A stretch of DNA of 64,000 nt, from positions 1-64,000 of the IMG/VR virus record IMGVR_UViG_3300019776_000324, one strand, 5' to 3'. The position numbers and the translations under genes were made by a program. Within the stretch, counting starts at the first letter, position 1. Each line of letters starts with the position of its first letter. Source of the DNA: a virus. Under the pieces are notes generated by a model. The model did not search any database. It was not told where the DNA came from and saw only the letters and a list, made by a program, of their open reading frames with translations. Below are positions 4,146 to 31,867 of this stretch, one piece after another.

Positions 4146-5231
4146 ATGTCAGATACAAGAACAGTCAATTCAGTTCAAGCTCGTAAAAGTTTACTGAAAG
4201 CATTCAAAAAACAACGCCCATTATTTTTATGGGGTCCTCCTGGTATTGGTAAGTCAGAGTTGGTTGCTGACTTGACTGAAGAACTAGGTGGTGCTATGAT
4301 CGACCTTCGGTTGGGTCAGATGGAGCCGACAGATATTCGCGGTATTCCTTTTTATAACAAAGATTTGGGCAAGATGGATTGGGCTGAGCCTATCGATTTG
4401 CCAGATGCAGAATTTGCTGGACAGTATCCGATTGTAGTCTTGTTCTTGGACGAGATGAATTCAGCGGCACCATCAGTTCAAGCGGCTGCTTATCAGTTGA
4501 TTTTGAATCGTCGTATTGGCAAGTATAAAATGCCAGACAATGTAGTTATTGTGGCCGCAGGTAATCGCGAGTCAGACAAAGGTGTTACATATCGTATGCC
4601 TACTCCGCTTGCAAATCGTTTCATTCACCAAGAGATGAAGGTAGACTTTGCGGCTTGGCAAGATTGGGCTGTTAACCACGGCATCCATAAAGATGTGGTT
4701 GGTTACTTGACCTACGCTAAACAGGACTTGAATGAGTTCGATGCTAAATCAGCTAGTCGTGCATTCGCTACTCCACGCTCATGGACATTCGTATCACAGT
4801 TGTTAGAAGACGAAGATGGTGATGATGACACTATCATGAACTTGGTTGCAGGCACTGTAGGTGAAGGACTTGCTGTTAAGTTTATGGCACACCGCAAGAT
4901 TGCTGGTAAAATGCCTAAGCCAGAAGATATCTTGGCTGGTAAGGAAAAAGAGCTGAATGTCAAAGAAGTATCGGCTATGTACAGCTTGGTAATCTCCATG
5001 TGCTACGAGCTTAAAGCGGCTGTAGAAGCCAAGGTAGAGGACAAGAAGTTCCATGAAATGGCAGATAACTTCTTTGCCTACATGATGAAGAACTTTGAAA
5101 CTGAACTTGTGGTAATGGGAGCCCGCATAGCACTTACGACCTATAATTTGCCATTCCAACCAACTAAGTTGAAAAACTTTGATGAGTTCCATAAAAGATA
5201 CGGCAAGTATATTTTACAAGCCAGTGCATAG
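4146..5231 (+). CDS. MoxR/CobS-like AAA+ ATPase (AAA_5 type)
   Basis: Walker A LWGPPGIGKSELV. Walker B VVLFLDEMN. Sensor region VVIVAAGNRE...MPTPLANRF. About 360 aa, typical of MoxR/CobS. Confidence 0.75.
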   Translation: MSDTRTVNSVQARKSLLKAFKKQRPLFLWGPPGIGKSELVADLTEELGGAMIDLRLGQMEPTDIRGIPFYNKDLGKMDWAEPIDLPDAEFAGQYPIVVLFLDEMNSAAPSVQAAAYQLILNRRIGKYKMPDNVVIVAAGNRESDKGVTYRMPTPLANRFIHQEMKVDFAAWQDWAVNHGIHKDVVGYLTYAKQDLNEFDAKSASRAFATPRSWTFVSQLLEDEDGDDDTIMNLVAGTVGEGLAVKFMAHRKIAGKMPKPEDILAGKEKELNVKEVSAMYSLVISMCYELKAAVEAKVEDKKFHEMADNFFAYMMKNFETELVVMGARIALTTYNLPFQPTKLKNFDEFHKRYGKYILQASA

Positions 5232-5310: not shown

Positions 5311-5505
5311 GCCCTTTAATGCTTCACTAATCTTACGCTTGGTCTCTTCACTCATTGTATAGGTCCGACCTTTCATTGGCGATACACGACCTTTTAATTT
5401 AGCTGATCTTTTAGCATTCGCTTCTTCGGTTTGCGGTTTACCAGGCAACCCATTTTTAGCCCAGGTTGACCTGAAATTAGCTCTATAGTATAATAGTGTT
5501 ATCAT
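5293..5505 (-). CDS. NUMOD3-repeat DNA-binding protein, probably a remnant of a freestanding homing endonuclease
   Basis: Two NUMOD3-like repeats (QTEEANAKRSAKLKGR and MSEETKRKISEALKGKTKG). Lone - strand gene in a + block, wedged between a terminator and a promoter. No nuclease domain present. Confidence 0.45.
   Translation of the reverse strand: MITLLYYRANFRSTWAKNGLPGKPQTEEANAKRSAKLKGRVSPMKGRTYTMSEETKRKISEALKGKTKGA
5466..5494 (+). promoter_or_regulatory. sigma70-consensus promoter (TTGACC-N17-TATAAT)
   Basis: TTGACC 5466-5471, TATAAT 5489-5494, then AGTGTTATCAT. Lies inside the 5' end of the - strand NUMOD3 ORF and drives the small-gene array. Confidence 0.6.
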
Positions 5506-5525: not shown

Positions 5526-5753
5526 ATGACTAAACTATTAATAGATCGCCTAGATAGATTAACTCTCCTGGTATCTGAATACTATTTTCCTCAATGGATC
5601 GAACAAGGGTATGGAGCACCAAAAGAAAGCTCCTGGCGTCAAATATTTGAATGGTGTTTAGACTGTGGCATTGAGTGTAATAGAGGTCGTGGCACTACCT
5701 TAAGATTTCATAAAGAAACAGATGTTACAGCATTTATGTTAAAGTGGAGTTGA
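5526..5753 (+). CDS. small-protein family member (C-term FMLKWS)
   Basis: 75 aa; the tail AFMLKWS matches the array consensus. Confidence 0.6.
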   Translation: MTKLLIDRLDRLTLLVSEYYFPQWIEQGYGAPKESSWRQIFEWCLDCGIECNRGRGTTLRFHKETDVTAFMLKWS

Positions 5754-5755
5754 AA

Positions 5756-5956
5756 ATGAACTATTTAAGTATAGCACAGATTGATGAAGTAAAGATGGAA
5801 ATGGATGACCTGCTGATACCTATCGCAAAGATTAGTTTAAGTATTCGTCCTGAAGATATACAAAATATGATAATGATGCACGGCCCAGACTTTATGCCAG
5901 AACTACAGCGTATGATTGGCGAAATTGTATTGGATTCTTATAAGACTCAGGATTAA
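5756..5956 (+). CDS. small hypothetical protein (66 aa, no family tail)
   Basis: ATG 3 nt after the upstream TGA. The track GTG start at 5744 was rejected. Confidence 0.45.
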   Translation: MNYLSIAQIDEVKMEMDDLLIPIAKISLSIRPEDIQNMIMMHGPDFMPELQRMIGEIVLDSYKTQD

Positions 5957-5993
5957 ACAGGCTGTGTCGCTACAGCCTTCCACCTTTACTATT

Positions 5994-6332
5994 ATGTTCA
6001 CTATGAAATTTAAAATCGTCAAAACTGATCGTAGGCATACTGCCAATCAAGTATTCCGGTACTATGTTGAGCCTGCATACGAATTAGGTGTTGGCCGTGA
6101 CGAGCGTATTGAAATGTTTAAAGAGTTGCGAGCTTGGTGTTGGGAACAGTTTGGGCCTGGTTGCGAGCGTGATTATGTTGTGCTACACCCGGTTCCTGCG
6201 GGCATAGATGGTCAGTGTCGAATGGCAACTCAAGAGCGTTGGGCTTGGCTTACTACAACTGACACTAATTCGGTGTTGAGAATCTATTTTAACGATGATG
6301 AACTAGCGTGGTTTAAACTCAAGTGGGCATGA
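5994..6332 (+). CDS. small-protein family member (C-term WFKLKWA)
   Basis: Start set at the first ATG after the upstream stop; the track start 5916 overlaps the previous gene. Tail DDDELAWFKLKWA. Confidence 0.5.
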   Translation: MFTMKFKIVKTDRRHTANQVFRYYVEPAYELGVGRDERIEMFKELRAWCWEQFGPGCERDYVVLHPVPAGIDGQCRMATQERWAWLTTTDTNSVLRIYFNDDELAWFKLKWA

Positions 6333-6538
6333 TGATTCGAATTGCCAATTTACAACAGCGTGATGGAATCCATCACTGGCTCAAAGATCGTGGAATCTAT
6401 CGTGATCTTTATGAGTTGGGTTATGACTTTGGTGATTCATCTGACGAGGGCATAGAACTCTGGCCCGTGCTTAGAATCAACGACGGTGTGTTATCAGCAA
6501 CTGATGTAACTGAATTTATATTAAGGTTTGGTGTATGA
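6329..6538 (+). CDS. small-protein family member (variant tail FILRFGV)
   Basis: ATGA overlap with the upstream stop; 69 aa. Confidence 0.5.
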   Translation: MMIRIANLQQRDGIHHWLKDRGIYRDLYELGYDFGDSSDEGIELWPVLRINDGVLSATDVTEFILRFGV

Positions 6539-6735
6539 CCCAGGTTGAATGTCACATACCTATGAGCCGTATGGAGGAGATTACAGAATGGTTGCACAAC
6601 AACATCGGCCCAGGTTGGATACACCCCGACACACATGTTTGGAGTTATGGTGAGCTGTATGAATCAGTTCATTTTAGCCGTGAACAGGATGCCGTTATGT
6701 TTAAACTAAAATGGGCTGGAAATGAAAACATATAA
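6535..6735 (+). CDS. small-protein family member (tail EQDAVMFKLKWAGNENI)
   Basis: ATGA overlap; 66 aa. Confidence 0.6.
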   Translation: MTQVECHIPMSRMEEITEWLHNNIGPGWIHPDTHVWSYGELYESVHFSREQDAVMFKLKWAGNENI

Positions 6736-7075
6736 GCGTACAATTATTATCCGTGAAAGAGATCTTTGTAGTCTAATGTACAAGACTATTAAAAAAGGCC
6801 TGTTTGACCGCATTGATGTAGAACCGTTAACCTATCAAGAAATACAAAACGAAATATTAATAGATACATTAAAGGGCACACCAACTCGTAAGTGGAGTGT
6901 ATTGCCTGATGTGTATGAAACACTAATGTACAAGGAAGGTAACTTGTACAACAAGCAGTATTTGTCCTGGTTGTTGACCATGGATTATCCTAACGGACAG
7001 ATCTATGTGCAGAGCCGTTCAGGCGAACCCACTGATCCTTTACACCGTGTGACTTTTGAGAAAGACTATGCGTAA
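6722..7075 (+). CDS. hypothetical protein (117 aa)
   Basis: ORF in the array without the family tail. Confidence 0.5.
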   Translation: MKTYKRTIIIRERDLCSLMYKTIKKGLFDRIDVEPLTYQEIQNEILIDTLKGTPTRKWSVLPDVYETLMYKEGNLYNKQYLSWLLTMDYPNGQIYVQSRSGEPTDPLHRVTFEKDYA

Positions 7076-7313
7076 ACGCCTACACGAATCTCGTTACTTT
7101 AGACTGCAACAAGAGCACACAGCCAAAGGTCGCAAGTTCTATAGAATTGTATTCTGGAAACTGTGGCCACTGAGCGTAGACGACGAAGAACGAATTAGAG
7201 ATGTAATAGATCCACAGCGTAGCCGAAGTGGTCGAAATGGAACCAATTGGAAATATACTAATCGCAAGGAAGCAGAACAAATGTATAGTATGTTGTTGTT
7301 AAGGTGGAGTTAA
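7068..7313 (+). CDS. small-protein family member (tail MLLLRWS)
   Basis: ATG 7068 overlaps the upstream stop; the track TTG start at 7056 was rejected. Confidence 0.55.
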   Translation: MRKRLHESRYFRLQQEHTAKGRKFYRIVFWKLWPLSVDDEERIRDVIDPQRSRSGRNGTNWKYTNRKEAEQMYSMLLLRWS

Positions 7314-7315
7314 AG

Positions 7316-7675
7316 ATGAAACATTATTTGTCATTTATTCAGTGGTTAATTCAGCGTATGTTTCGGACTGTTATATCAGGACCAGTTAGACTTTTTAAAT
7401 GGTATAAAGGTCGACTATATTACGAAACATTTTTAACCATACTGGCATCCATTGTTGGTTGGGCCATGCTGTTATTTGCAGGTGCTGTCGCATCAACTAC
7501 TAATGTTAATGGTAAGTTGGTAGTTGAGACTGATGATGTTTGGCCATTTATAATAGCTTTGTTTGCGCCGCCTGTGGTGTTTATTGTGGCTTGCGTTTCT
7601 ATTCAATATGATCATTACTGTTCAGAGCTAGAGCGCACTATGAAAACTCTTAAAGGCAAGCATGACAGTATATAA
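7316..7675 (+). CDS. small membrane protein (2 TM)
   Basis: ATG 3 nt after the upstream TAA. Hydrophobic helices LASIVGWAMLLFAGAV and WPFIIALFAPPVVFIVACV. Confidence 0.5.
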   Translation: MKHYLSFIQWLIQRMFRTVISGPVRLFKWYKGRLYYETFLTILASIVGWAMLLFAGAVASTTNVNGKLVVETDDVWPFIIALFAPPVVFIVACVSIQYDHYCSELERTMKTLKGKHDSI

Positions 7676-7865
7676 AGCAAAGATGCCAGAAGCATGGGCT
7701 CGTATGGAATGGTGTCGAGCTCAGTTCGGTGGCGAAGGTGAACCAAATTGGGAAAAGTATGGCGGAGTTGATATTGCCCATGGACTACGCTGGTGGCGTA
7801 GACAAGGCTACTTGTTCTTTCGCAATGAACGAGATTTTGTCCTATACTGTTTGAGGTGGGCATGA
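7662..7865 (+). CDS. small-protein family member (tail RDFVLYCLRWA)
   Basis: 67 aa; ends in the conserved junction TTGAGGTGGGCATGA. Confidence 0.6.
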   Translation: MTVYKAKMPEAWARMEWCRAQFGGEGEPNWEKYGGVDIAHGLRWWRRQGYLFFRNERDFVLYCLRWA

Positions 7866-8227
7866 AGATTAAAGAATTTTACCATGAGTTTGAAATGCTA
7901 GTGCGACCAAGTTCACGCAGGTTGCGTCGTATGAAAAATCCTGGATACAGATCCGATGTATGGAATGCCTATATCGATGATTCTATGATATATGACATCA
8001 GTAATGTTGCTGAAGAAGTTGAGTGTGTGGAGGTGCTCATGCCTGCGGACCGTCTTGAAGAGTTGGAACAACTATTAAAACATTATGAAAAAATGGAAGA
8101 ATCGCATCAGCACAGGCATGTTGTTATTAGTAAGCTGAGAGAGGACGAGCGAGTGCGTATTAAAAATCCTGCTGTTCGTCAAGCATGGGAACACTACTTA
8201 ACATTATTAAACTTGTGCAGAGATTAA
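7862..8227 (+). CDS. hypothetical protein (121 aa)
   Basis: ATGA overlap start. No family tail. Confidence 0.5.
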   Translation: MKIKEFYHEFEMLVRPSSRRLRRMKNPGYRSDVWNAYIDDSMIYDISNVAEEVECVEVLMPADRLEELEQLLKHYEKMEESHQHRHVVISKLREDERVRIKNPAVRQAWEHYLTLLNLCRD

Positions 8228-8228
8228 G

Positions 8229-8471
8229 ATGAATAGCAAAGATAGACGCAAAGATCGTAGAGCATGGAAGTATTCTGTAGCTACTCCTCATGTAATGATG
8301 ACTGGAGTTGCGGGCATGCAAGACGAGTATGATGCAATGTGGAACTGGTGCAAGGAAAACTTTGGTAGCGATGCTCGTTACTGTGGATGGCGTGATCGTG
8401 AGTGGGGTGAGCGTTGGGAGTTTAACGACAGTAAGAAAGCTGCACTATTTTCTCTAAGGTGGAGTAGATGA
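8229..8471 (+). CDS. small-protein family member (tail KKAALFSLRWSR)
   Basis: 80 aa. Confidence 0.6.
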   Translation: MNSKDRRKDRRAWKYSVATPHVMMTGVAGMQDEYDAMWNWCKENFGSDARYCGWRDREWGERWEFNDSKKAALFSLRWSR

Positions 8472-8803
8472 AACTAGAACCTTGGCAGGCAGAAGTATTT
8501 GTTAAGTATTGCGAGAATGATATCAAAATGACCATGAATATAGGCCGTCAGACGGGCAAATCAACATGGGTAAGTATGTTAAGGAACTTTATGGAACGAC
8601 CAGAAAAACGATTTCAATTAGTATCGGGAATCTATAACTACTCACTAATGATCGAAGACTACATGTGGTGGGCTGACAATGAGCGTGAAATACTTAACTG
8701 GATGGCGGAGAACTTACCGCGCGGCATTGAACATCAACAGGGCATGATTCTTACATTTGATACAGACAAACAGCGTATGATGTTCTTGTTGAGGTGGGCA
8801 TGA
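8468..8803 (+). CDS. small-protein family member (tail KQRMMFLLRWA)
   Basis: ATGA overlap; 111 aa. Confidence 0.6.
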   Translation: MKLEPWQAEVFVKYCENDIKMTMNIGRQTGKSTWVSMLRNFMERPEKRFQLVSGIYNYSLMIEDYMWWADNEREILNWMAENLPRGIEHQQGMILTFDTDKQRMMFLLRWA

Positions 8804-9075
8804 CAGTAAAGTATGTTGACGGTTGGTACGAAATAGAGCATCTCCCGCCTAAAGAGATCTGGGCAGTTCATAGCAAAGAATGGGCATGGAAACCTAGACG
8901 AAATTGGTGTAGGAAAACATTTGCTCCGGGTGAATGGGAAATGCGCGATCCTATATATCATTACAGTATAGGTCCTAGCGGACCCGGTAAACGAATACTA
9001 TCAACTACACCATTAACCTGGCGATTCAAGCGTGAAGCTGATGCCTTGTTGTTTACCTTAAGGTGGGCCAAATGA
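8800..9075 (+). CDS. small-protein family member (tail ADALLFTLRWAK)
   Basis: ATG 8800 (track GTG 8794 rejected). ATGA overlap. Confidence 0.6.
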   Translation: MTVKYVDGWYEIEHLPPKEIWAVHSKEWAWKPRRNWCRKTFAPGEWEMRDPIYHYSIGPSGPGKRILSTTPLTWRFKREADALLFTLRWAK

Positions 9076-9353
9076 ATGTTGCTATCCAGCGTGTAACCGA
9101 TATACTTGAAAATTTAATAGCCGAAGAGGCCGCAAAAGAAATGCAAGCAAGTATGGACTATGATGTGCTATGTGAAGTAATGATACCATTTGGTTATACT
9201 GCTGTCCAAATTGAGTACGGCAACAACAAGCGGTGGATTGATGTCATGGCATGGGTGGACAGCAACCGTGTTGGTGATTATCAAGAGCACAAAGGTAAAT
9301 GGTTGTTTAAAAATGAACAAGATGCTATAATGTTTAAGTTGAGGTGGGCCTGA
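9072..9353 (+). CDS. small-protein family member (tail EQDAIMFKLRWA)
   Basis: ATG 9072 overlaps the upstream TGA. Confidence 0.6.
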   Translation: MNVAIQRVTDILENLIAEEAAKEMQASMDYDVLCEVMIPFGYTAVQIEYGNNKRWIDVMAWVDSNRVGDYQEHKGKWLFKNEQDAIMFKLRWA

Positions 9354-9544
9354 TGTTTGATGAAAAGAATCGTGTTATAGTATTATCCGCTGGCAGTACA
9401 CAACAGGAGAAACTTGATTGGTGTTGTGATCATTTGGCAGGAACGGTTATGTGCCATCCTATCACTTACGGTCTTGATGATGCTGAGATATGGTATTTTG
9501 AAACGGGTGAAGAATCTACTATGTTTGCGTTAAGGTGGGCATGA
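9353..9544 (+). CDS. small-protein family member (tail EESTMFALRWA)
   Basis: TGATG 1-nt overlap; 63 aa. Confidence 0.55.
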   Translation: MFDEKNRVIVLSAGSTQQEKLDWCCDHLAGTVMCHPITYGLDDAEIWYFETGEESTMFALRWA

Positions 9545-9780
9545 AGATAGAAACTACATGGGATAACCTTAATAAGGTCCCTTGGACAGCAATTAACCGA
9601 GCTGGTGACTATTATCATACGCATGTTAGATCTACAAAGGGTGCTTTCATTGATAGATTAAAGGCCGGTGCCGAATATAGCGCCTGGATGCGAAACAATT
9701 GGGGAATACACCACGAGCCTTTGGAATTCAAAATAGTCGATGAGAAAAAATACACCATGTTCTTGTTGAGGTGGGCATGA
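9541..9780 (+). CDS. small-protein family member (tail EKKYTMFLLRWA)
   Basis: ATGA overlap. Confidence 0.6.
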   Translation: MKIETTWDNLNKVPWTAINRAGDYYHTHVRSTKGAFIDRLKAGAEYSAWMRNNWGIHHEPLEFKIVDEKKYTMFLLRWA

Positions 9781-10007
9781 AAGTAAAGAAAACCGATCCA
9801 ACCTTGTTTGTTGATCCGTATGGAGAAGCCAAACAGAAGTTGTTGAACCGAGGCTATGTTGCTATACCAGTGACTAAGAATCATAACTGGACCGGCATTC
9901 ATGAATGGTGCAAACAATATCTACACTTTGACTACACCTGGTTTGGTTTAGAATTTTGGTTTGCTGACGAACAAGATGCTGTGTTATTTCAGTTGAGGTG
10001 GGCATAA
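9777..10007 (+). CDS. small-protein family member (tail EQDAVLFQLRWA)
   Basis: ATGA overlap. Confidence 0.6.
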   Translation: MKVKKTDPTLFVDPYGEAKQKLLNRGYVAIPVTKNHNWTGIHEWCKQYLHFDYTWFGLEFWFADEQDAVLFQLRWA

Positions 10008-10177
10008 TGTCACTTAATCAAGATTATGCAGTTTCGTGTAAAAACATAACCAACGACCAATGGAACTGGTTGTGCAATACCATAGGAACTCCTACAAAAG
10101 ATTGGCACTATAACTTTGCACATATTTGGTTCTATAAAGAAGAACATAAGACTCTTTGGCTGTTGAGGTGGGCATAA
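10007..10177 (+). CDS. small-protein family member (56 aa, tail HKTLWLLRWA), absent from the ORF track
   Basis: ATG at 10007 overlaps the upstream TAA (TAATG). Translates to MSLNQDYAVSCKNITNDQWNWLCNTIGTPTKDWHYNFAHIWFYKEEHKTLWLLRWA. Ends in the same TTGAGGTGGGCATAA junction. Confidence 0.55.
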   Translation: MSLNQDYAVSCKNITNDQWNWLCNTIGTPTKDWHYNFAHIWFYKEEHKTLWLLRWA

Positions 10178-10178
10178 C

Positions 10179-10427
10179 ATGGCACAATTTTATCAAGGAC
10201 CACACTTTTGGGACAAGAGTACTTACGAAGTTACTGTAAAGACTACTCGGTATCGCGTTCGCCAAGTGTGGATTGATGATATGATCAAGTGGGCTAAAGA
10301 ACGAGAAATAAGCATTCACTGGCAAGGCGAAAGCACTCATGTCCACAACGATGATGAATGGCACGAAGCACACTTCTGCATTTACGACAGCAATGATCGT
10401 ATGTTATTTGCGTTGAGGTGGGCATGA
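10179..10427 (+). CDS. small-protein family member (tail NDRMLFALRWA)
   Basis: 82 aa. Confidence 0.6.
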   Translation: MAQFYQGPHFWDKSTYEVTVKTTRYRVRQVWIDDMIKWAKEREISIHWQGESTHVHNDDEWHEAHFCIYDSNDRMLFALRWA

Positions 10428-10723
10428 GTCTATCAAATCAAGCAAAGAATATAAAAGGTCACATGGATCTGTTTCCAGAAAAGTGGAACGATAACCGTGC
10501 CAAACGAGATAGATTTTGGGCGATGTTAAGACGGGTCAAATCAGACTATTTTACCCTAGTCAAAGATTTGGGCAACGATCCCGACGATGGAAGTTTTTAT
10601 ACATACATGCAGGATACCTATGGTATAAAACTAATATTAACAAACCGTGGTGAGATCACAGACATGTTTGAAGTTACAGATGAAAAGAAACAAATGATGT
10701 TTATTTTAAAATACGGATCATGA
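10424..10723 (+). CDS. small-protein family member (variant tail KKQMMFILKYGS)
   Basis: ATGA overlap. Confidence 0.55.
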   Translation: MSLSNQAKNIKGHMDLFPEKWNDNRAKRDRFWAMLRRVKSDYFTLVKDLGNDPDDGSFYTYMQDTYGIKLILTNRGEITDMFEVTDEKKQMMFILKYGS

Positions 10724-10944
10724 TTAGAGTTAGTACCAAAGACGAAGCGTTTATGCAAGCATATCACAATGCTCGTCGTGCCTTACCGGTTGAAACTCTA
10801 GAAAGCCCCAGGCAGTATGGTGCTCGCTGGCGAGAAACATATTGTTGCAGAGTAGATGCAAACGGAAATAATAAGATAGACGAAACTTATTATGTCTTTG
10901 ACAACGATGAAGATTACACTTGGTTTATGTTACGATGGGGTTAA
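10720..10944 (+). CDS. small-protein family member (tail DEDYTWFMLRWG)
   Basis: ATGA overlap. Confidence 0.6.
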   Translation: MIRVSTKDEAFMQAYHNARRALPVETLESPRQYGARWRETYCCRVDANGNNKIDETYYVFDNDEDYTWFMLRWG

Positions 10945-11159
10945 AGATCGCTGTCAAAGATTCAGCCGAAGCATTTGGCCTTAAAATGGAAGTAGACCGT
11001 CATGGCCTGCGTCCTGGTGCAGGATATACTTGGCGTTATACTCCAGCGGTAAGAGATTACTTTGGCCTCATAGCCGAAGAAGAGGATGTGGCTCGAGTAG
11101 AGTTTGAGTTTGACGATCCAAAGTGGGCAACATATTTTCAATTACGGTGGGCACAATGA
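10935..11159 (+). CDS. small-protein family member (tail KWATYFQLRWAQ)
   Basis: First ATG after the overlap region; the track start 10920 was rejected. Confidence 0.5.
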   Translation: MGLKIAVKDSAEAFGLKMEVDRHGLRPGAGYTWRYTPAVRDYFGLIAEEEDVARVEFEFDDPKWATYFQLRWAQ

Positions 11160-11470
11160 CAACTACAACAGTATATAATCTAGCAGATGGTAGTGTAGTA
11201 GAGCTAAAAACCAATCCAGGTGCAGCACCTATTGTATTCCTTAATGGTGTTATACAACAACCTGGAACTTATTCCTTGTCAGGAACAAATGTCATATTTG
11301 ATACACCGCAAAAAACATGGCAATGGCAACAGCATTATGCTTGGTTACCAAAGCGCATTAATGGTAAGTGGTATTGGTTTACTTATGTTTATCGTTACTG
11401 GTGTCTATCGCCTGGCGGAGGATTTTGGCGATATGGCGACGACTTTGACAAATTAAAGGACACCAAATGA
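11156..11470 (+). CDS. hypothetical protein (104 aa, no family tail)
   Basis: ATGA overlap start; the track start 11123 was rejected. Confidence 0.45.
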   Translation: MTTTTVYNLADGSVVELKTNPGAAPIVFLNGVIQQPGTYSLSGTNVIFDTPQKTWQWQQHYAWLPKRINGKWYWFTYVYRYWCLSPGGGFWRYGDDFDKLKDTK

Positions 11471-11724
11471 GTTGGAAACCCATGGTAGACTATGAAGAAT
11501 CGGTTCCTCTAAAGCGTCGAGCAACCAAGAAAAAGGTTTGGGATGAATTGACTCAAACCTGGAAAGATGCTACAATATGGACTGTAATCTATAATCGTGA
11601 GCTAAAGGATTGGTTAGAAGAGACCTATCCTGGCAAGCAAGGGTGGGGCACTGCCTGGAGCGATAGCAAGATTATCATGGAAGAACCAGTTTACTTACAT
11701 TATTGTTTAAAGTTTGGAGCATGA
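11467..11724 (+). CDS. small-protein family member (variant tail VYLHYCLKFGA)
   Basis: ATGA overlap. Confidence 0.55.
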   Translation: MSWKPMVDYEESVPLKRRATKKKVWDELTQTWKDATIWTVIYNRELKDWLEETYPGKQGWGTAWSDSKIIMEEPVYLHYCLKFGA

Positions 11725-11951
11725 TGTCACCTTGGGAATACTTACGCGAGTGGAATCTAATGGAAAAGCCGGATTCACGCCGAGCCAGTAGAGAGTGGAT
11801 CAATCAAGAAATGCAGAGTCACTGGCCAGGTCCGTATCGTGTGGAACGATGCCAATCACGCTATGCTGGCACAGGTTGGCGTATTGATTACGAGATTAAA
11901 TTTGCGGATCCTCAAGAAGAAACAATGTTTAGATTAAAGTTTGGAGCATAA
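11721..11951 (+). CDS. small-protein family member (tail QEETMFRLKFGA)
   Basis: ATGA overlap; the track start 11703 was rejected. Confidence 0.55.
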   Translation: MMSPWEYLREWNLMEKPDSRRASREWINQEMQSHWPGPYRVERCQSRYAGTGWRIDYEIKFADPQEETMFRLKFGA

Positions 11952-12334
11952 TGGATAGAGATTTAGAAGACGATCTTAAGAACGATGCCTTGGTCATGGA
12001 AAAGATCAAGGATCGTCGCTATGCTCAAAATGTCTATGCCGCACTGTGCAACATGCGTTGGCAACCTGAGGAAGTATGGCCTGTGCTCACTGATGAATAC
12101 TGGTCATGTAGTTGGCGCAGTGCTGGTGGGCTTGTAGCTGATCTTAGAGTTGACTTTAATGAAGATTACATGGATTGGTATTGTTCAGGTATTAGTGGAG
12201 GATTTGATTTTGAATCTGATGACGAAGAGCGTAATAAAGGATATGTTGCAGAAGGGGAAGTAACAGATGAAATTCGTGAAGATTTTGCTCGCTTGGGTTG
12301 GCATCCAAGTCCATGGCCTAAAGACGAGGTATAA
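11951..12334 (+). CDS. acidic hypothetical protein (127 aa)
   Basis: TAATG overlap. Asp/Glu-rich. No family tail. Confidence 0.5.
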   Translation: MDRDLEDDLKNDALVMEKIKDRRYAQNVYAALCNMRWQPEEVWPVLTDEYWSCSWRSAGGLVADLRVDFNEDYMDWYCSGISGGFDFESDDEERNKGYVAEGEVTDEIREDFARLGWHPSPWPKDEV

Positions 12335-12338
12335 TAAT

Positions 12339-12572
12339 ATGTTTGTTAAAGATGTTGAAAAAATGATTATCGGCAGTTTAAAAGAAGTTATGAAGGATCG
12401 CAATCTTTTTTATAACTCAACTGTGGGGCCGGAGTACTGTCACTTAACCAACGAGGGTGCAAAGGCTATTACTGACATGTGTAATGTCTTACTACCTAGG
12501 TTGCTTAAAGCACAAGAGCTAGAAGATATTGAACGCAGTAAAATGATAGTTATGCAAGAACTTAAAAAATGA
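12339..12572 (+). CDS. hypothetical protein (77 aa)
   Basis: ATG 12339 with GACGAGGT SD; the track start 12267 was rejected. Confidence 0.45.
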   Translation: MFVKDVEKMIIGSLKEVMKDRNLFYNSTVGPEYCHLTNEGAKAITDMCNVLLPRLLKAQELEDIERSKMIVMQELKK

Positions 12573-12835
12573 ACAGTCACGACCGTAGAGTTGTAGAGCG
12601 AGCATGGCCACACCATGTTTATCTGCACGATGGTGACAGTTTAGTTGAAGATTGTTTTGAATGGTTACACACAAATTTTGGTTCATGCCGTTGGACTGGC
12701 AAGCGCAATCCGCGCTGGTGCTGGCGTCCAGATATGGGTCAAGGCCCTAACTTTGTTATAATGCGACATGGTGTAGAAATATTCTTCCGTAAGAAAGAAG
12801 ATTACGCTTGGTTTATGTTAAAGTGGGATAGATGA
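12569..12835 (+). CDS. small-protein family member (tail KEDYAWFMLKWDR)
   Basis: ATGA overlap. Confidence 0.6.
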   Translation: MNSHDRRVVERAWPHHVYLHDGDSLVEDCFEWLHTNFGSCRWTGKRNPRWCWRPDMGQGPNFVIMRHGVEIFFRKKEDYAWFMLKWDR

Positions 12836-13116
12836 ATTACTATTACGAAATTAGTGAAAAGTATGATGGCACTGTGTTTGGCGACCGGTGGCGTTACTGG
12901 TGCTTGGCCAACTGTAGCCCAGCTGAAGGTGGCAAAATGTGTTTTAAAACACACGACGAGTTTGTAGCTCGTAGCAGTCGTGTATGGTTAGAAAATGCCA
13001 ATGGTGTTTATCAAATCAAGCCCGACTGGTATGGCATGCGTGGGCAAGTGGATCCACATGAGTTTACTATGATTAAACTAAAATCACGAGTGTATAAATG
13101 GTGGTACGATGAATGA
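12832..13116 (+). CDS. small-protein family member (degenerate tail FTMIKLKSRVYKWWYDE)
   Basis: ATGA overlap. The motif is displaced from the C-terminus. Confidence 0.45.
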   Translation: MNYYYEISEKYDGTVFGDRWRYWCLANCSPAEGGKMCFKTHDEFVARSSRVWLENANGVYQIKPDWYGMRGQVDPHEFTMIKLKSRVYKWWYDE

Positions 13117-13450
13117 TGATGACATAAAAGCCTTGCATAACAAGCTACGAGGTTACAGCAAACAACTACCTGGGCAAGCCGGCGACGAATACTATGAAAG
13201 TCAGGCCGCTAGATTAGATACTATCATAGGTGGCGACACTGGCCACTTCCAACGCTTGCAACGAGTACGCAACGAATGGGACGAGCTAGCTAGAGCTGTG
13301 CCTGTTGGACAAGGTTTCTTAACATTCTACGACTATGTAAAAGAGTACTATGGTATCAAACTAATGTATGACGGCGATGATCTAAAGTTAGAATATAGTA
13401 TTATAGACGAAAAGAAGTACACTGTGTTCTTATTGAAGTTTGATAGATAA
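13109..13450 (+). CDS. small-protein family member (tail EKKYTVFLLKFDR)
   Basis: 113 aa. Confidence 0.55.
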   Translation: MNDDDIKALHNKLRGYSKQLPGQAGDEYYESQAARLDTIIGGDTGHFQRLQRVRNEWDELARAVPVGQGFLTFYDYVKEYYGIKLMYDGDDLKLEYSIIDEKKYTVFLLKFDR

Positions 13451-13704
13451 TGCATATAAACAATTTTACTTTACCTACTCCGCCGCAGGAATTACTAGAC
13501 AAGTGTATTCAAGTTGCATTTGATGGTGAGGGCCGGTTTATGAGTAAAATGCGCCGCTGGTGTTACGATCATACAGAATCATTTGTATGGGCAGATCGTA
13601 TTGACATGAGCGATAGTAGCTACTGGACCGGCCCGGATGATTATGTAGTGTTTTATTTTTATAAAGAAATTGATGCTACACTATTTAGATTAAAGTGGCT
13701 ATGA
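13450..13704 (+). CDS. small-protein family member (tail IDATLFRLKWL)
   Basis: TAATG overlap. Confidence 0.55.
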   Translation: MHINNFTLPTPPQELLDKCIQVAFDGEGRFMSKMRRWCYDHTESFVWADRIDMSDSSYWTGPDDYVVFYFYKEIDATLFRLKWL

Positions 13705-13925
13705 TTGATCGTAATCCACTGTTAACCATTCCTGTAAAAACCTACGCTCATTATAGTGAGTGCGAACCTTGGCTGTTGGCCAATGTAGGTGGCTGGAATG
13801 ACTTATGGTGGAGAGATTTTCAAGATGTTGCTATGCATGTGGCCTTAGGCGAAGGAACACAACCAGACTGCTATTGGTTTTGTCGTGAACAAGATGCCTT
13901 GATGTTTAGGTTAAAATTTCAATGA
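13701..13925 (+). CDS. small-protein family member (tail EQDALMFRLKFQ)
   Basis: ATG 13701 with ATGA overlap; the track start 13695 was rejected. Confidence 0.55.
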   Translation: MIDRNPLLTIPVKTYAHYSECEPWLLANVGGWNDLWWRDFQDVAMHVALGEGTQPDCYWFCREQDALMFRLKFQ

Positions 13926-14143
13926 TATGGTCCATGATCATTGCCAAGGTCTTGACTACAGTGATGTCGTGGTTAGATGCTGGCAATCTACGCAACAAGG
14001 TTTACAAGCAGGCTGAAGAAGCAGAAATCATGATGACTGCCTTAGAAGATATTGAACGCATGAGCAAGGAAGACCGGATCAAACACTATGCTCGTACAGC
14101 AATTAACACAGTAAAAGGATTGCCCATTGAAGACGACTATTAA
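13922..14143 (+). CDS. hypothetical protein (73 aa)
   Basis: ATGA overlap. No family tail. Confidence 0.45.
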   Translation: MIWSMIIAKVLTTVMSWLDAGNLRNKVYKQAEEAEIMMTALEDIERMSKEDRIKHYARTAINTVKGLPIEDDY

Positions 14144-14468
14144 GCACAACTTGATTATCTTTCATCGTCCTAAAGAGTGGGATGAACTACAACAACGATT
14201 AATAGATGAATATGGTCGTAGTGTTATTCTGGTTCGAGACAAGTGTCGTCGTGAGCTGGGATTTACTCCCCGCCATCACAGGGGTTTAATTCCTTACCTA
14301 GACAAATGGGGACACGGCGTGGTAAGAAACTCTGGTGCTACCAAAGAGCAAGCTGACAAGTTTATTGCAGAAAATAAACACAAAATGGCCTACGACAATC
14401 AGGTACATTTAGACTTCTATAGCGAAGCAGCAATGAGCTGGTTTGTGCTAAAATATCTTAATGACTAG
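14127..14468 (+). CDS. small-protein family member (variant tail AAMSWFVLKYLND)
   Basis: Only possible start is TTG 14127, with AAAAGGA 8 nt upstream. Confidence 0.4.
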   Translation: MKTTIKHNLIIFHRPKEWDELQQRLIDEYGRSVILVRDKCRRELGFTPRHHRGLIPYLDKWGHGVVRNSGATKEQADKFIAENKHKMAYDNQVHLDFYSEAAMSWFVLKYLND

Positions 14469-14471
14469 CGG

Positions 14472-14500
14472 TTGACCAGAAATTCCATTTCGGTTATAAT
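14472..14500 (+). promoter_or_regulatory. sigma70-consensus promoter (TTGACC-N17-TATAAT), ATG 6 nt downstream
   Basis: TTGACC 14472-14477, TATAAT 14495-14500, then AGTAGTATG with the start codon at 14507. Confidence 0.6.
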
Positions 14501-14506
14501 AGTAGT

Positions 14507-14797
14507 ATGAAAGTGATTAAATTAGACCGAAGATACGCCGGCTTTCCTAAGTGGAAGTATGCCTGCCAATTTCCTGTAAGAAATCACAATTATCGAAAAG
14601 AATATTTTAACTACGTTCGGACATTTAAAGAATTGTTTGGTGCAGAATCTCAGTCAAACCCTGACCGTAATACCGGCGATTGGTCTAAGCCTTTTTGGAT
14701 TTATAACGAGCACTGGTGCACTGACTTTCCTAAACAGCGAATTCTTGTTAAAGATCAAGCGGTTATAAGCATGATCATGCTGAAAATGCCCGGTTGA
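14507..14797 (+). CDS. small-protein family member (variant tail DQAVISMIMLKMPG), probably on a leaderless mRNA
   Basis: ATG at 14507 is 6 nt after the TATAAT box with no SD. DQAVISMIMLKM resembles EQDAVMFKLKWA. Confidence 0.5.
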   Translation: MKVIKLDRRYAGFPKWKYACQFPVRNHNYRKEYFNYVRTFKELFGAESQSNPDRNTGDWSKPFWIYNEHWCTDFPKQRILVKDQAVISMIMLKMPG

Positions 14798-14822
14798 CTC
14801 GAAATGCCCAAAATGCTATAAT
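14794..14822 (+). promoter_or_regulatory. sigma70-consensus promoter (TTGACT-N17-TATAAT)
   Basis: TTGACT 14794-14799 contains the upstream TGA stop. TATAAT 14817-14822, then TAGTTAGAAATTAGGAGCAGAA before ATG 14853. Confidence 0.65.
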
Positions 14823-14852
14823 ATTACATATAGTTAGAAATTAGGAGCAGAA

Positions 14853-15143: not shown

Positions 15144-15172
15144 TTGACCAAATAATCCATTTATAGTATAAT
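15144..15172 (+). promoter_or_regulatory. sigma70-consensus promoter (TTGACC-N17-TATAAT)
   Basis: TTGACC 15144-15149 lies immediately after the upstream TGA. TATAAT 15167-15172, then AGTTGTATAGTTAATAAAAGGAG before ATG 15201. Confidence 0.7.
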
Positions 15173-15200
15173 AGTTGTATAGTTAATAAAAGGAGCCCAT

Positions 15201-15530
15201 ATGTTAGAACGCAATTTAGATACTAGAGAAGCACCTACAAAATGGTGGGCGGCGCAAGATGCTCGCATGCGTAACTTGGCAAATAAAAGTCACTACGATG
15301 AGCAAACTCAAATTCGCGTTGAACGCATGATCATGGCCCTGGGTCTTTGCTACAATGCAAAAGGTATTCACGAAGCGTTTGGCAAGCGGGGTGTGAGTAT
15401 CAAAGTAGACCGTCCTACTTCAATCAAAGATCGCGTGAATCTCAAATTGCTAGAACAAGATTGGGAAGAGGCGGGTGTAACTAAAAAGGTAAGCCCACAG
15501 GGCGTTATCTATAGATTCTCTGCAGATTGA
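15201..15530 (+). CDS. hypothetical protein (109 aa)
   Basis: AAGGAG SD 7 nt upstream. Confidence 0.55.
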   Translation: MLERNLDTREAPTKWWAAQDARMRNLANKSHYDEQTQIRVERMIMALGLCYNAKGIHEAFGKRGVSIKVDRPTSIKDRVNLKLLEQDWEEAGVTKKVSPQGVIYRFSAD

Positions 15531-15555
15531 CCTATAATTCCATTAATAGTATAAT
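15527..15555 (+). promoter_or_regulatory. sigma70-consensus promoter (TTGACC-N17-TATAAT)
   Basis: TTGACC 15527-15532 overlaps the upstream TGA. TATAAT 15550-15555, then AGTAGTATAGTTAATAACAAAGGCAG before ATG 15584. Confidence 0.7.
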
Positions 15556-15583
15556 AGTAGTATAGTTAATAACAAAGGCAGAT

Positions 15584-16867
15584 ATGACCACTAGCACACA
15601 AAACAAAAAAGAATCAGACAAGTTTAAAAACTTATTGGGTCCGACTAACCCTAAAGTTGATGCAGATGTTCGTGAGAAGTTGATTACTGCTCGTGTGGGC
15701 TTGTTACTTCGTGCAAGTTTCTTTGGTAACTTGGCTACTCGCTTAAAGTTAGTCAATGCTGATGAATGGTGTCCAACAGCCGCAACTGATGGTCGTCACT
15801 TTTACTACAATACCCGTTTCGTAAACATGCTCAAGCCAAAAGAGATTGAGTTCTTGTTTGGTCATGAGGTCTTGCACTGTGTTTACGATCACTTTGGCCG
15901 TCGTGGCGATCGTGACCATCAACTGTTTAACATTGCCAATGACTATTGCGTAAACGCAGACTTGAAGAAACATCGTGTGGGCGAGTTTATTACATCAGTA
16001 CCTTGCTTGTACGATGCCAAGTACGAAGGTATGAGTTCAGAAGAGATTTATGATCTCTTGTATGAAAATGCTGAAAAGATCAATATCAGTGATTTGATTG
16101 ACAAATTGCTCGATGATCACTTGGATGGTAATGGTGACGGGGAAGGTGAAGATGGCGATGAGAAAGATGGCAAAGGCAAGGGTCGCCCTAAACTAAGCGC
16201 AGAAGAGCGTCAACAGATCAAAGATGAGATCAAAGAAGCTGTATTGGCTGCGGCTGCCGCTAGCGACGGTGCAGGTAACTTGCCAGCAGGTGTCAAGCGT
16301 ATCATTGAAGATATGACTGCACCTAAAATGAACTGGCGCGAGTTGTTGCGTATGCAATTAGAGTCAACTATCAAGACTGACTACACTTGGATGCGCTCTA
16401 GCCGTAAAGGCTGGCACATGGATGCTATTATGCCTGGACAGAAGTTTGATGAGCTTATTGATATTGCTGTTAGTATTGACGCTTCAGGCAGTATGGGCGA
16501 AGCTATGCTCAAAGATATCTTGTCAGAAGTGCAAGGTATTGTAGACAGTTTCCCAGCTTACAAACTGCACATTGTATCGTTTGATACTCAGATTTACAAT
16601 CCACAGACTTACGACAGTGAGAACTTGGACAATCTAGTAGACTACGAAATCCACGGTGGTGGCGGTACAGACTTTGATTGTGTGTTTGAATACTTCAAAG
16701 AAAATGACATCCAACCCAAGCGTCATATCATGTTTACTGACGGTTACCCATGTGGTAGTTGGGGTGATGAGAACTACTGTGATACTGTGTTTATCATGCA
16801 CGGTACTACTAGCATTGTTCCACCGTTTGGTCAGTACGCTTACTATGAGGAAGAAAAGAGTCACTAA
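15584..16867 (+). CDS. metallopeptidase-like (HExxH) plus von Willebrand factor A domain protein, partner of MoxR-type AAA+ ATPases
   Basis: GHEVLHCVYDH zinc-binding-type motif in the N-terminal half. MIDAS motif DASGSMG and downstream T/D ligands in the C-terminal half. An acidic Gly/Asp/Glu/Lys linker (DGNGDGEGEDGDEKDGKGKG) joins them. Confidence 0.65.
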   Translation: MTTSTQNKKESDKFKNLLGPTNPKVDADVREKLITARVGLLLRASFFGNLATRLKLVNADEWCPTAATDGRHFYYNTRFVNMLKPKEIEFLFGHEVLHCVYDHFGRRGDRDHQLFNIANDYCVNADLKKHRVGEFITSVPCLYDAKYEGMSSEEIYDLLYENAEKINISDLIDKLLDDHLDGNGDGEGEDGDEKDGKGKGRPKLSAEERQQIKDEIKEAVLAAAAASDGAGNLPAGVKRIIEDMTAPKMNWRELLRMQLESTIKTDYTWMRSSRKGWHMDAIMPGQKFDELIDIAVSIDASGSMGEAMLKDILSEVQGIVDSFPAYKLHIVSFDTQIYNPQTYDSENLDNLVDYEIHGGGGTDFDCVFEYFKENDIQPKRHIMFTDGYPCGSWGDENYCDTVFIMHGTTSIVPPFGQYAYYEEEKSH

Positions 16868-21773: not shown

Positions 21774-22124
21774 ATGTTCAAGGCCATAAACGAATTGCAT
21801 CCGAGAAATCGTTCTGCTGAAGCAGACAAACTGTTCAAAGCACCAGAGTGGCGACTTGTTGACGATAAAGCTGTTAAGTTTTCGGATGTAATGGTTCATT
21901 CGTTCAACATGGGCGATGTAGAAGATCCAGATCTATATGCTGCACAACCCATTATGGAATGGCAGAACAGCGAAGCAGGACAATGGGTTATAGAACATGC
22001 TGTGGAGAAACCCTTCTGGCATCGTGTGTTGAGTCCTTACACTTATGGATGGACATATTATATTGTAGCTCGACTTGCTGAGCAAGATCAAACATACTGG
22101 ACACTTAAATGGCAAAAATCTTAG
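21774..22124 (+). CDS. distant member of the small-protein family (tail EQDQTYWTLKWQKS), probably leaderless
   Basis: C-terminus resembles the EQDAxMFKLKWA tails of the array. ATG 6 nt after TATAAT. Confidence 0.5.
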   Translation: MFKAINELHPRNRSAEADKLFKAPEWRLVDDKAVKFSDVMVHSFNMGDVEDPDLYAAQPIMEWQNSEAGQWVIEHAVEKPFWHRVLSPYTYGWTYYIVARLAEQDQTYWTLKWQKS

Positions 22125-23077: not shown

Positions 23078-24122
23078 AAAGCAGTATAACAATCTGCGTA
23101 CAGAGATCTTAGATGTCACTGATGAAGTGTTAAGGTCAGGACAACTCATGGCTGGCAATTATACCGCAGAGTTTGAAAATTGGCTGGCTCATCGCAATCA
23201 CAGCAAATACGCTATAACATGTCACTCAGGCAGTCAAGCCCTAGAGATAATTGCCGAATACTATCGTACACAAACTAGTACTCGCCCACCCAGAGTAGTT
23301 GTACCATCAATGACTTATGTGGCCACTGCTAATGCATTTATACGAGCAGGTTGGGAAGTATGGATCGCAGACACTGACAAGTACGGTTTACTAGACAACA
23401 AGAAGCATGTGCCTGTGGATCTAAGTGTACAAGCAACTGTGCTGGTTGGCCTGTATGGTGCGGCTGTTAATGCTGATCGCTTTTGGGGTACGGACCTAGT
23501 TATAGAAGATGGTGCACAACACTGGTTGGCAAACAATTCAAATCGTGTGGGCAATGCTTGTGCTATCAGCTTTGACCCTATGAAGAACTTGAATGCTTAT
23601 GGCAACGGTGGTGCTGTAGTAACTGACGATATAGACTTGTTGGAGTTTGCTAGAGAGTGGACCAACAATGGCAAGCCCACGCACACAAACATAGGCACTA
23701 ACAGTAGAATGAGTGAGATAGAGTGTGCGCAGATGATGGTTAAAACACAGCACATTGATTCATGGCAAGCTCGTCGTGAAAACATATCCAAGTACTGGAT
23801 GGGCCGATTAAAGAACACAGGTATTAGAAGTTTAATTGATGCACACAATGTTGAAACACACTCGTATCACAAGTTTGTTATTGATGTGGACAATAGAGAT
23901 ATCCTTGCTCGTAACTTGGATATCAAAGGCATTGAAACTAGAGTACACTACAAGCAACCGCTACATGAACTGCCAGCTTACAGTAATTGCACTGGTCCTG
24001 ACATGTTAAGTGTTGCCAGTGCGTTGTCACGCAGAGTATTAAGTTTACCTATCTATCCAGAACTAACTGATCTGGAAGTAGAATATATTATTGATCAGGT
24101 ATTAGATTCCGCTTTATCATAG
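23043..24122 (+). CDS. DegT/DnrJ/EryC1-family PLP-dependent sugar aminotransferase
   Basis: HSGSQALEI, and the Lys-containing motif ISFDPMKNLNAYGNGGAVVTDD. ATG 23043 with GAGGAA SD; the track TTG start at 23031 was rejected. Confidence 0.75.
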   Translation: MPGLKIPFTGLKKQYNNLRTEILDVTDEVLRSGQLMAGNYTAEFENWLAHRNHSKYAITCHSGSQALEIIAEYYRTQTSTRPPRVVVPSMTYVATANAFIRAGWEVWIADTDKYGLLDNKKHVPVDLSVQATVLVGLYGAAVNADRFWGTDLVIEDGAQHWLANNSNRVGNACAISFDPMKNLNAYGNGGAVVTDDIDLLEFAREWTNNGKPTHTNIGTNSRMSEIECAQMMVKTQHIDSWQARRENISKYWMGRLKNTGIRSLIDAHNVETHSYHKFVIDVDNRDILARNLDIKGIETRVHYKQPLHELPAYSNCTGPDMLSVASALSRRVLSLPIYPELTDLEVEYIIDQVLDSALS

Positions 24123-31773: not shown

Positions 31774-31867
31774 TTATAGATAAATGGATCTCTTTTACGC
31801 AGTTCTTTTAATTTTTTGCGGTATCTAATTTCCAATTTAATTTTATTAATTAAGTTTGTAATCCACT

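Follow-up and report, generated by a model that had tools for sequence, protein, structure and literature searches.

The last codons of small genes that follow one another in an uncultured jumbo phage very probably double as the Shine-Dalgarno (SD) sequence and the start/stop overlap of the next gene. We analyzed a 64,000-nucleotide (nt) stretch of DNA (the window; positions 1 to 64,000 of IMG/VR record IMGVR_UViG_3300019776_000324, from a metagenomic contig of 344,530 bp) in which a 15-nt string, TTGAGGTGGGCATGA, recurs at gene ends. We read this string as the link between small paralogous genes that form a translationally coupled tandem array; the tail codons would have three roles: protein tail, SD, and start/stop overlap. 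In the mechanism that we propose, the tail codons, (U)UGAGGUGG, contain GAGGUG, which would act as a strong SD for the next gene. The next start codon, 5 nt downstream of the SD, would overlap the stop codon as AUGA or UAAUG, and a ribosome ending one cistron would be held by the SD and re-initiate on the next. Thirty-odd cistrons could in this way be translated off one transcript without intergenic DNA. Selection for coupling would also push Lys toward Arg (AAG to AGG) and favor Trp (UGG) over Tyr or Phe. The evidence consists of the anatomy of the junctions, an extreme codon bias that depends on context, a rule that the last sense codon before TGA ends in A (NNA-TGA), and the predicted strength of the SD. 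We infer from these that the SD and the ATG would be used in vivo, that the array would be read as a single transcript, and that coupling would drive the choice of Arg and Trp.

Junction anatomy and predicted Shine-Dalgarno strength

Exact copies of TTGAGGTGGGCATGA start at 7851, 8789, 9766, and 10413, copies with one mismatch at 9339, 9530, 9993, and 10163, and a copy with three mismatches at 6318. Allowing up to 3 mismatches gives 9 copies, a number not attained in any of 100 shuffles; 1.64 would be expected. Every copy terminates precisely on the stop codon of an open reading frame (ORF) on the + strand. An earlier note on this DNA had described a string that recurs at consecutive gene boundaries, and the four exact and four one-mismatch copies, each ending on a stop codon, bear this out. 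Between 7851 and 10427, the 15-mer is present with at most one mismatch at 8 of 11 gene boundaries. Spaced variants occupy 8457-8471 (AGGTGGAGTAGATGA) and 9061-9075 (AGGTGGGCCAAATGA); at boundary 8227 the 15-mer is absent and the upstream gene does not belong to the family. For the next ORF, the start codon is the ATG of GCATGA (4-nt overlap) or that of TAATG or TGATG (1-nt overlap), or it lies 1-2 nt past the stop, and most of the 36 junctions in the array show a 4-nt or 1-nt stop/start overlap or a very short spacer. We gathered the DNA of ~90 loci from related uncultured phages by means of a tight family sub-alignment and of a DUF2201 neighbor gene. A family hidden Markov model scored 310 hits on the + strand of these loci and 1 on the other strand (at least 9 bits). 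Among 228 unique family junctions from ~45 phage loci, 176 are of the overlap type (121 ATGA, 31 TAATG, 12 GTGA, 8 TTGA, 2 TGATG, and 2 TAGTG).

In GAGGUG, all six nucleotides are complementary to the canonical 16S rRNA tail. The center of this hexamer lies ~6.5 nt from the ATG and its GAGG core ends 5 nt before it, so the spacing of 6-7 nt given in the earlier note is acceptable. With a canonical tail assumed, junctions after Arg tails are predicted to pair with the anti-SD more strongly than any others in the window (a median of -9.6 kcal/mol, compared to -3.3 kcal/mol in 23 large genes). Among random 18-mers drawn from the array, only 3.5% get as low as -8 kcal/mol. A canonical anti-SD is likely because the genes that follow intergenic gaps carry AAGGAG or AGGAG. 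Lys tails have a mean of -4.1 kcal/mol and non-family junctions one of -4.3 kcal/mol. The earlier suggestion that the LKWS and LKFGA tails keep a G-rich SD is weakly true, with predicted values of -6.9 and -5.6 kcal/mol. In studied systems, coupling is tight in ATGA and TGATG gene pairs that have an intragenic SD, and removal of the SD usually weakens re-initiation (Huber et al. 2019, PMC6728339), and SD-like hexamers at C-terminal gene ends serve downstream genes (Diwan and Agashe 2016, PMC4943179).

A short motif conserved at regular positions along a long transcript could also be an RNA element that regulates a polycistronic mRNA through its structure, as a processing site, or by binding a protein. 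The RegB nuclease of phage T4, for instance, cuts early mRNAs at GGAG in SD regions. GGAG is, however, absent from most junctions (GAGGTGGGC), and neither an Rfam match between 5000 and 16000 nor an RNA fold or stem-loop shared by the junctions was found. We therefore rejected an explanation by RNA structure or a known Rfam family and regard an RNA element of any of these kinds as very improbable.

The protein family, codon choice, and the start of the next gene

Twenty-six array genes between 5526 and 14797 and an outlier at 21774-22124 carry a C-terminal F-x-L-[RK]-[WFY]-x motif. The earlier note had placed the array at 7851-10427; the junctions there were confirmed, but the array is larger, as these 26 genes and the outlier indicate. 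The wider family has the consensus W-C-x3-F-G ... W ... F-x-F-x-x-E-x-D-A-x-x-F-x-L-[RK]-W-x, and its members end in an amphipathic C-terminal helix (...D-A-x-x-F-x-L-[R/K]-W-x). A profile search with the paralogues returned 841 cluster representatives at E ≤1e-3 among 1.84 billion proteins, all of them small proteins in which the match runs to the C-terminus. Among the top 149 representatives, the motif lies within the last 12 residues in 139 and the protein ends exactly one residue past the aromatic in 88. The bodies of the paralogous genes are only 15-30% identical. Searches of Pfam/Pfam-A and PHROGs gave no significant profile match for the family, the source names of the cluster members hold nothing but "hypothetical protein," neither near nor distant nucleotide matches to the array turned up in 50,697 phage records, and a tblastn search with one family member gave none either. 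The family, with at least 841 clusters, is uncharacterized, comes from uncultured jumbo phages, and has no Pfam or PHROG entry. Five metagenomic proteins (P0020, P0022, P0035, P0076, and P0083) are tandem fusions of two family domains; they keep the first L-[RK]-[WF] internally, followed by a Met 1-4 residues on, as if the stop of a junction had been lost.

The codons of the motif are not those of the gene bodies. In the window, no Arg codon is rarer than AGG, which is used for 10 of 221 Arg residues (4.5%) in the bodies of the same genes and for 13 of 677 (2%) in large genes, yet 12 of 14 tail Arg codons are AGG (P ~6e-15). In the related phages, the tail Arg is AGG in 53 of 68 cases, compared to 7.8% in bodies, and in 41 of 52 after clustering at 50% identity (~90 loci). 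The final Ala is GCA in 9 of 12 window tails (P = 0.005). When the junctions were aligned, the third position of the Arg/Lys codon held 1.29 bits, against 0.02-0.75 in the nine codons upstream. Among tails in the related loci that have a single residue before TGA, the last sense base is A in 82 of 95 and G in 8. The residue at this position varies (A, S, K, L, V, G, T, E, and others, with the codons GCA, TCA, CTA, TTA, ACA, AAA, and others), and since the last sense codon ends in A, ATGA arises whatever the amino acid.

The earlier note had proposed a comparison of dN/dS between the tail codons and the motif positions upstream. Where orthologues share a residue, they use the same codon in 58% of cases in bodies, 71% at the Arg/Lys position, and 83% at the last codon, as expected if the tail is constrained. 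At the Leu position the figure is 42%; the Leu codon is not fixed (TTG, TTA, and CTA in the window) and is free among TTR and CTR. In the window alone, the Lys codon showed no significant bias (7 of 13 AAG). These data support the view that tail codons are constrained at the nucleotide level, probably by downstream initiation signals. The proposal that tail and coupling signal constrain each other thus holds for the Arg codon, the A-ending last codon, and synonymous identity, and fails for the Leu codon, which varies freely.

Could protein conservation explain the 15-mer by itself? If it were kept solely through conservation of L-R-W-A and common ancestry of the paralogues, its likeness to an SD and an ATG would be a coincidence. 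Trp has a single codon, and L-[RK]-W hardly varies among 118 diverse family members and the 841 clusters and is kept even away from starts, in extended tails and in fusions. However, AGG makes up 2-8% of Arg codons elsewhere and 77-86% in tails; bodies are so diverged that synonymous sites should therefore be randomized; and the third base of the last codon stays A whatever residue it encodes. Finally, codon choice switches with junction architecture inside one orthologous group (below), which contradicts this explanation. We consider it scarcely credible.

We found that the choice of codon and residue follows the position of the next start. Where a start lies at most 8 nt past the Trp codon, AGG accounts for 72 of 94 tail Arg codons, compared to 7 of 26 otherwise (P = 9e-6). 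The ratio of Arg to Lys is 94:61 with a start at most 8 nt downstream and 26:45 otherwise (P = 9e-4), and that of AAG to AAA is 31:30 and 10:35, respectively. Trp, whose alternatives are Tyr and Phe, is present in 116 of 155 tails with a close start and in 20 of 49 others (P = 2e-5); counted per 50% cluster, the figures are 60 of 76 and 6 of 17 (P = 8e-4). A second solution exists at 24 junctions, at which the next ATG is formed by xxA-TGG and the codon before Trp is always CGA, AGA, CAA, or AAA; the window has two of these, at 10935 and 22109. One gene pair occurs with both solutions, xxA-TGG and ATGA. In the orthologous group with the tail D-E-D-Y-T-W-F-M-L-x-W-x, the codon is CGA, AGA, or CAA in 7 of 7 xxA-TGG members and AGG or AAG in 4 of 4 members with the ATGA overlap, whose start sits 6 nt later than the xxA-TGG ATG.

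The xxA-TGG junctions also bear on another idea, in which AGG is selected not as part of an SD but because its G and the TG of Trp make an in-frame GTG start. The GTG within AGG-TGG (for example, at 7856-7864) is in frame with the downstream ATG at every junction, and 24 junctions demonstrably use xxA-TGG as an ATG. If used, the GTG would lengthen the downstream protein by 2 residues (ATGA) or 3 (TAATG); in locus L018, near 2055, it is the sole start codon available to the next gene. CGG, however, would give the same GTG and is as frequent as AGG in bodies (79 versus 79), yet AGG outnumbers CGG 72 to 10 in close-overlap tails. In addition, no SD-like sequence lies upstream of the GTG, and the preference for A in the last codon (ATGA, 82 of 95) is left unexplained. 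Selection of AGG for a GTG start is improbable in our judgment.

As a correlation, the data support the idea that the initiation signal feeds back on the protein, with Arg favored over Lys, and Trp over Tyr or Phe, near starts. Judged from these sequences, Trp is first of all a protein feature, because it is near-invariant in at least 841 clusters and persists where tails are extended or family domains are fused in tandem. The earlier proposal that coupling explains the fixed residues thus holds in part: Arg and Trp are commoner near starts, but Trp belongs to the protein in the first place.

Several points weigh against a coupled array as we describe it. The tail counts are phylogenetically non-independent, which clustering at 50% identity lessens but does not cure, although the direction was consistent. 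The anti-SD was taken as canonical, and the 16S tail of the host may differ. The start sites are those that the sequence suggests, and the in-frame GTG inside AGG-TGG could be an alternative start. Lys-type tails keep the ATGA overlap despite weak SDs, indicating that a strong SD is not required for the arrangement. Lastly, the single transcript is a prediction from a consensus promoter scan.

Array plasticity and a possible role of recombination

The interval between an AAA ATPase gene and a DUF2201-type gene, in which the array lies, is hyperplastic. It holds 0 genes in loci L036, L037, and L041, 1-5 in several loci, ~10-13 in many, and ~37 in the window. At the syntenic site of phage PA5oct there is no such array, and four unrelated genes are found there. 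Shared genes are ordered differently in the window, L001, L009, and L045, and relatives that are 70-88% identical differ by whole-gene insertions, deletions, and permutations whose breakpoints fall exactly at the stop/start overlap. In the three closest arrays, adjacency was kept across 0 of 3 evaluable AGGTGG junctions versus 15 of 18 other junctions. The downstream neighbor of gene 12 (8468-8803) differs in each of the six related phages that we compared; the gene that comes next is gene 21 in L107, gene 18 in L105, and an unrelated one in L104. The L107 junction corresponds to the left half of window junction 12/13 and the right half of window junction 20/21, joined at a shared CATGA, and the eight cassettes by which the window and L107 differ (8803-10723) have CATGA on either side. 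Blastn revealed homology islands of 30-55 nt centered on junctions.

These findings raise the question of whether the junction string is chiefly a recombination substrate, as the earlier note had suggested for the 15-mer. Crossing-over or microhomology joining at AGGTGGGCATGA would duplicate, delete, or permute cassettes and homogenize the string, a coding analogue of the promoter-early stem-loop (PeSL) cassettes, for which shuffling is documented (PMC2839356, PMC4122927). The range from 0 to ~37 genes with permuted order, the loss of adjacency across AGGTGG junctions, the joining of the gene-12 tail straight to gene 21 in L107, the changing neighbors of gene 12, and the junction-centered islands all speak for it. 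However, six strain-level contigs (L001-L006, 99-100% identical) show no indels and no recent rearrangement. The microhomology at the L107 breakpoint is only 5 nt, and indels of unrelated genes (a moron and radical-SAM-like genes) lie at exact boundaries that lack the 15-mer. No identity extends past the motif except in one pair within one subfamily, and neither the switch to CGA, AGA, or CAA nor the NNA rule is explained. Selection for intact genes alone yields boundary-precise differences. We found no chimeric gene bodies; nothing shows that the 15-mer is a recombination site, and the whole-gene differences fit selection for intact genes equally well. Junction-mediated cassette exchange would yield the observed differences, and so would selection for intact genes. 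A primary role in recombination is in our view unlikely.

The one extended identity concerns 8780-8811 and 9757-9788, which are identical at 31 of 32 nt across two different junctions (ATGTTCTTGTTGAGGTGGGCATGA[C/A]AGTAAAG) and include the first codons of both downstream genes; L105 has the same 24-mer. Gene conversion, which we considered as an origin of this likeness, was unconvincing, as the identity is the only one of its kind and lies within one subfamily. Inserts of non-family genes exactly at array gene boundaries occur in L020 (5030-5788 and 2967-4481) and L027 (6656-7810). One L020 insert encodes a 241-residue GDSxG-type protein with its own TATAAT and AAGGAG, a moron; the two others are radical-SAM/SPASM-like proteins of ~385-505 residues.

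A more far-reaching proposal combines the two roles. The L-R-W-x tail would be a portable coupling adaptor, the shared AGGTGGNNATGA junction would serve both as translational signal and as the microhomology that enabled growth from 0 to ~37 genes, and selection would have helped to fix Arg and Trp. We put this forward as doubtful. If true, each cassette would carry in its coding sequence the full ribosome-binding site and start context for any gene behind it, and indels or permutations at the AGGTGGNNATGA junction would leave genes intact and still coupled.

The locus, its genes, and known systems

The large genes of the window are distant kin of those of the jumbo phages PA5oct, Atu_ph07, and Phosso, the closest cultured relatives by non-array genes. 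The AAA ATPase gene (4146-5231) and the DUF2201-type gene (15584-16867) flank ~37 small genes on the + strand. The tightly packed array itself spans 5526-14468 (+ strand) with ~34 genes of 56-127 residues, and in our junction table neighbors mostly overlap by 4 nt or 1 nt. A sigma-70-type promoter (TTGACC, 17 nt, TATAAT; 11 of 12 consensus positions) precedes it at 5466-5494 (+ strand). The next promoters of comparable strength, at 14472, 14794, 15144, and 15527, lie in the sole intergenic gaps. A consensus scan of the + strand between 5494 and 14472 detected no promoter of comparable strength, and no convincing internal terminator was found within the array. Because strong promoters sit at its ends only, 5526-14468 (~34 genes) is most simply, and probably, one operon, that is, a polycistronic unit. 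The array is also probably expressed early, because a strong sigma-70-type promoter precedes it. The promoter belongs to an extended unit (TTGACC, 17 nt, TATAAT, then AGT.GTAT; 11 of 12 sigma-70 consensus positions) that is present in five copies, at 5466-5502, 14472-14508, 14794-14825, 15144-15180, and 15527-15563, and fills the sole intergenic gaps around the array. These units recall the promoter half of T4-type PeSL cassettes.

All family genes described here lie on the + strand. The first of the array (5526-5753) has the tail MLKWS (TTA AAG TGG AGT TGA) and is followed by an ATG at 5756. The gene at 7662-7865 (CLRWA) ends in the exact 15-mer at 7851-7865, with the next ATG at 7862. A spaced variant closes the gene at 8229-8471 (SLRWSR; CTA AGG TGG AGT AGA TGA; next ATG 8468), and gene 12 (LLRWA) ends in an exact copy at 8789-8803, with the next ATG at 8800. 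The gene at 8800-9075 has the tail TLRWAK (TTA AGG TGG GCC AAA TGA; next ATG 9072). P0001 (9072-9353; KLRWA) ends in GCC TGA, a single mismatch, and overlaps the ATG at 9353 as TGATG. There follow genes at 9353-9544 (ALRWA; TTA AGG TGG GCA TGA; next ATG 9541) and at 9541-9780 (LLRWA; exact 15-mer at 9766-9780). The gene at 9777-10007 (QLRWA; GCA TAA TG), for which a structure model was made, overlaps the ATG at 10007 as TAATG. The gene at 10007-10177 (LLRWA; GCA TAA C ATG) has the next ATG at 10179, and the one at 10179-10427 (ALRWA) ends in the exact 15-mer at 10413-10427, with the next ATG at 10424.

Farther downstream, the gene at 10720-10944 has the tail MLRWG (TTA CGA TGG GGT TAA), and the next ATG (10935-10937) is formed by the last base of the Arg codon and the TG of Trp. 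The gene that starts there (10935-11159) ends in QLRWAQ (TTA CGG TGG GCA CAA TGA; next ATG 11156). Two family genes within 11467-11951 share the tail LKFGA (AAG TTT GGA GCA TGA and AAG TTT GGA GCA TAA TG) and have a weaker SD-like signal. The 3' part of the array (12569-14797) has the Lys-type tails LKWDR, LKFDR, LKWL, LKFQ, LKYLND, and LKMPG, and its gene order is conserved in many relatives. Its last two family genes (14127-14468 and 14507-14797) precede promoter-bearing gaps; in these, Lys is encoded by AAA and Tyr or Met replaces Trp. In the outlying gene at 21774-22124 (TLKWQKS), the next ATG (22109) is formed by AA[A TG]G of the Lys-Trp codons.

Elsewhere in the window, on the - strand, a 798-residue ORF (24088-26484) has about four repeats like F-D-Y-S-W-x-P-D-P-G-D-P-P-Y-I-Y-x-F-G-x-Q-W and no PHROG match. 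A gene cluster at 30265-40687 (- strand), for a carbamoyltransferase-like protein and two others that resemble radical-SAM proteins, apparently forms a module for modification or auxiliary metabolism. A single ORF of 4718 residues (47769-61925, - strand) adjoins a baseplate-wedge-like gene (61925-63970).

The mechanism invoked here, termination-reinitiation with an intragenic SD, is already established biology (PMC6728339; review PMC12548453). The array shares with it the co-directional 4-nt or 1-nt overlaps and a canonically spaced SD within the final codons of the upstream gene, weak after Lys tails, and translation of each downstream gene would be expected to depend on that of the upstream one. 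What differs is that the SD and start sit in a peptide motif of a whole paralogous family, that 12-15 nt recur at many consecutive junctions, and that codon and amino-acid choice track junction architecture. Enrichment of SD-like hexamers at gene ends (PMC4943179; Palleja et al. 2009, PMC2784483) likewise shows the ribosome-binding site of a downstream gene constraining the 3' end of the upstream one. Those are genome-wide statistical trends, whereas here a single family offers internal controls, such as an orthologue that occurs as AGG...ATGA or CGA-TGG. The PeSL of T4-type phages (Arbiol et al. 2010, PMC2839356; Comeau et al. 2014, PMC4122927) is an intergenic promoter and terminator of tens of nt with demonstrated recombination and mini-circles. 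In both systems, small, non-essential genes have a short conserved expression signal at their borders and lie in a hyperplastic region, where relatives differ in which genes they carry and in what order. By contrast, the element shared in our array is coding, 12-15 nt long, and would act in translation rather than transcription; its junctions have no intergenic DNA, no promoter match, and no shared stem-loop.

The analysis also draws attention to a large uncharacterized family of small proteins and to a hyperplastic locus between the AAA ATPase and DUF2201 genes. For annotation, gene callers should put starts at the overlapping ATG. The array offers an unusually clean natural case in which an initiation signal and a protein motif appear to constrain each other: the same orthologue switches its Arg codon (AGG versus CGA or AGA) with the start mode of the next gene, and the choices between Arg and Lys and among Trp, Tyr, and Phe follow. 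The conservation of the C-terminus in this family should accordingly not be read as purely structural, and synonymous recoding of such tails would be predicted to break expression of the downstream gene.

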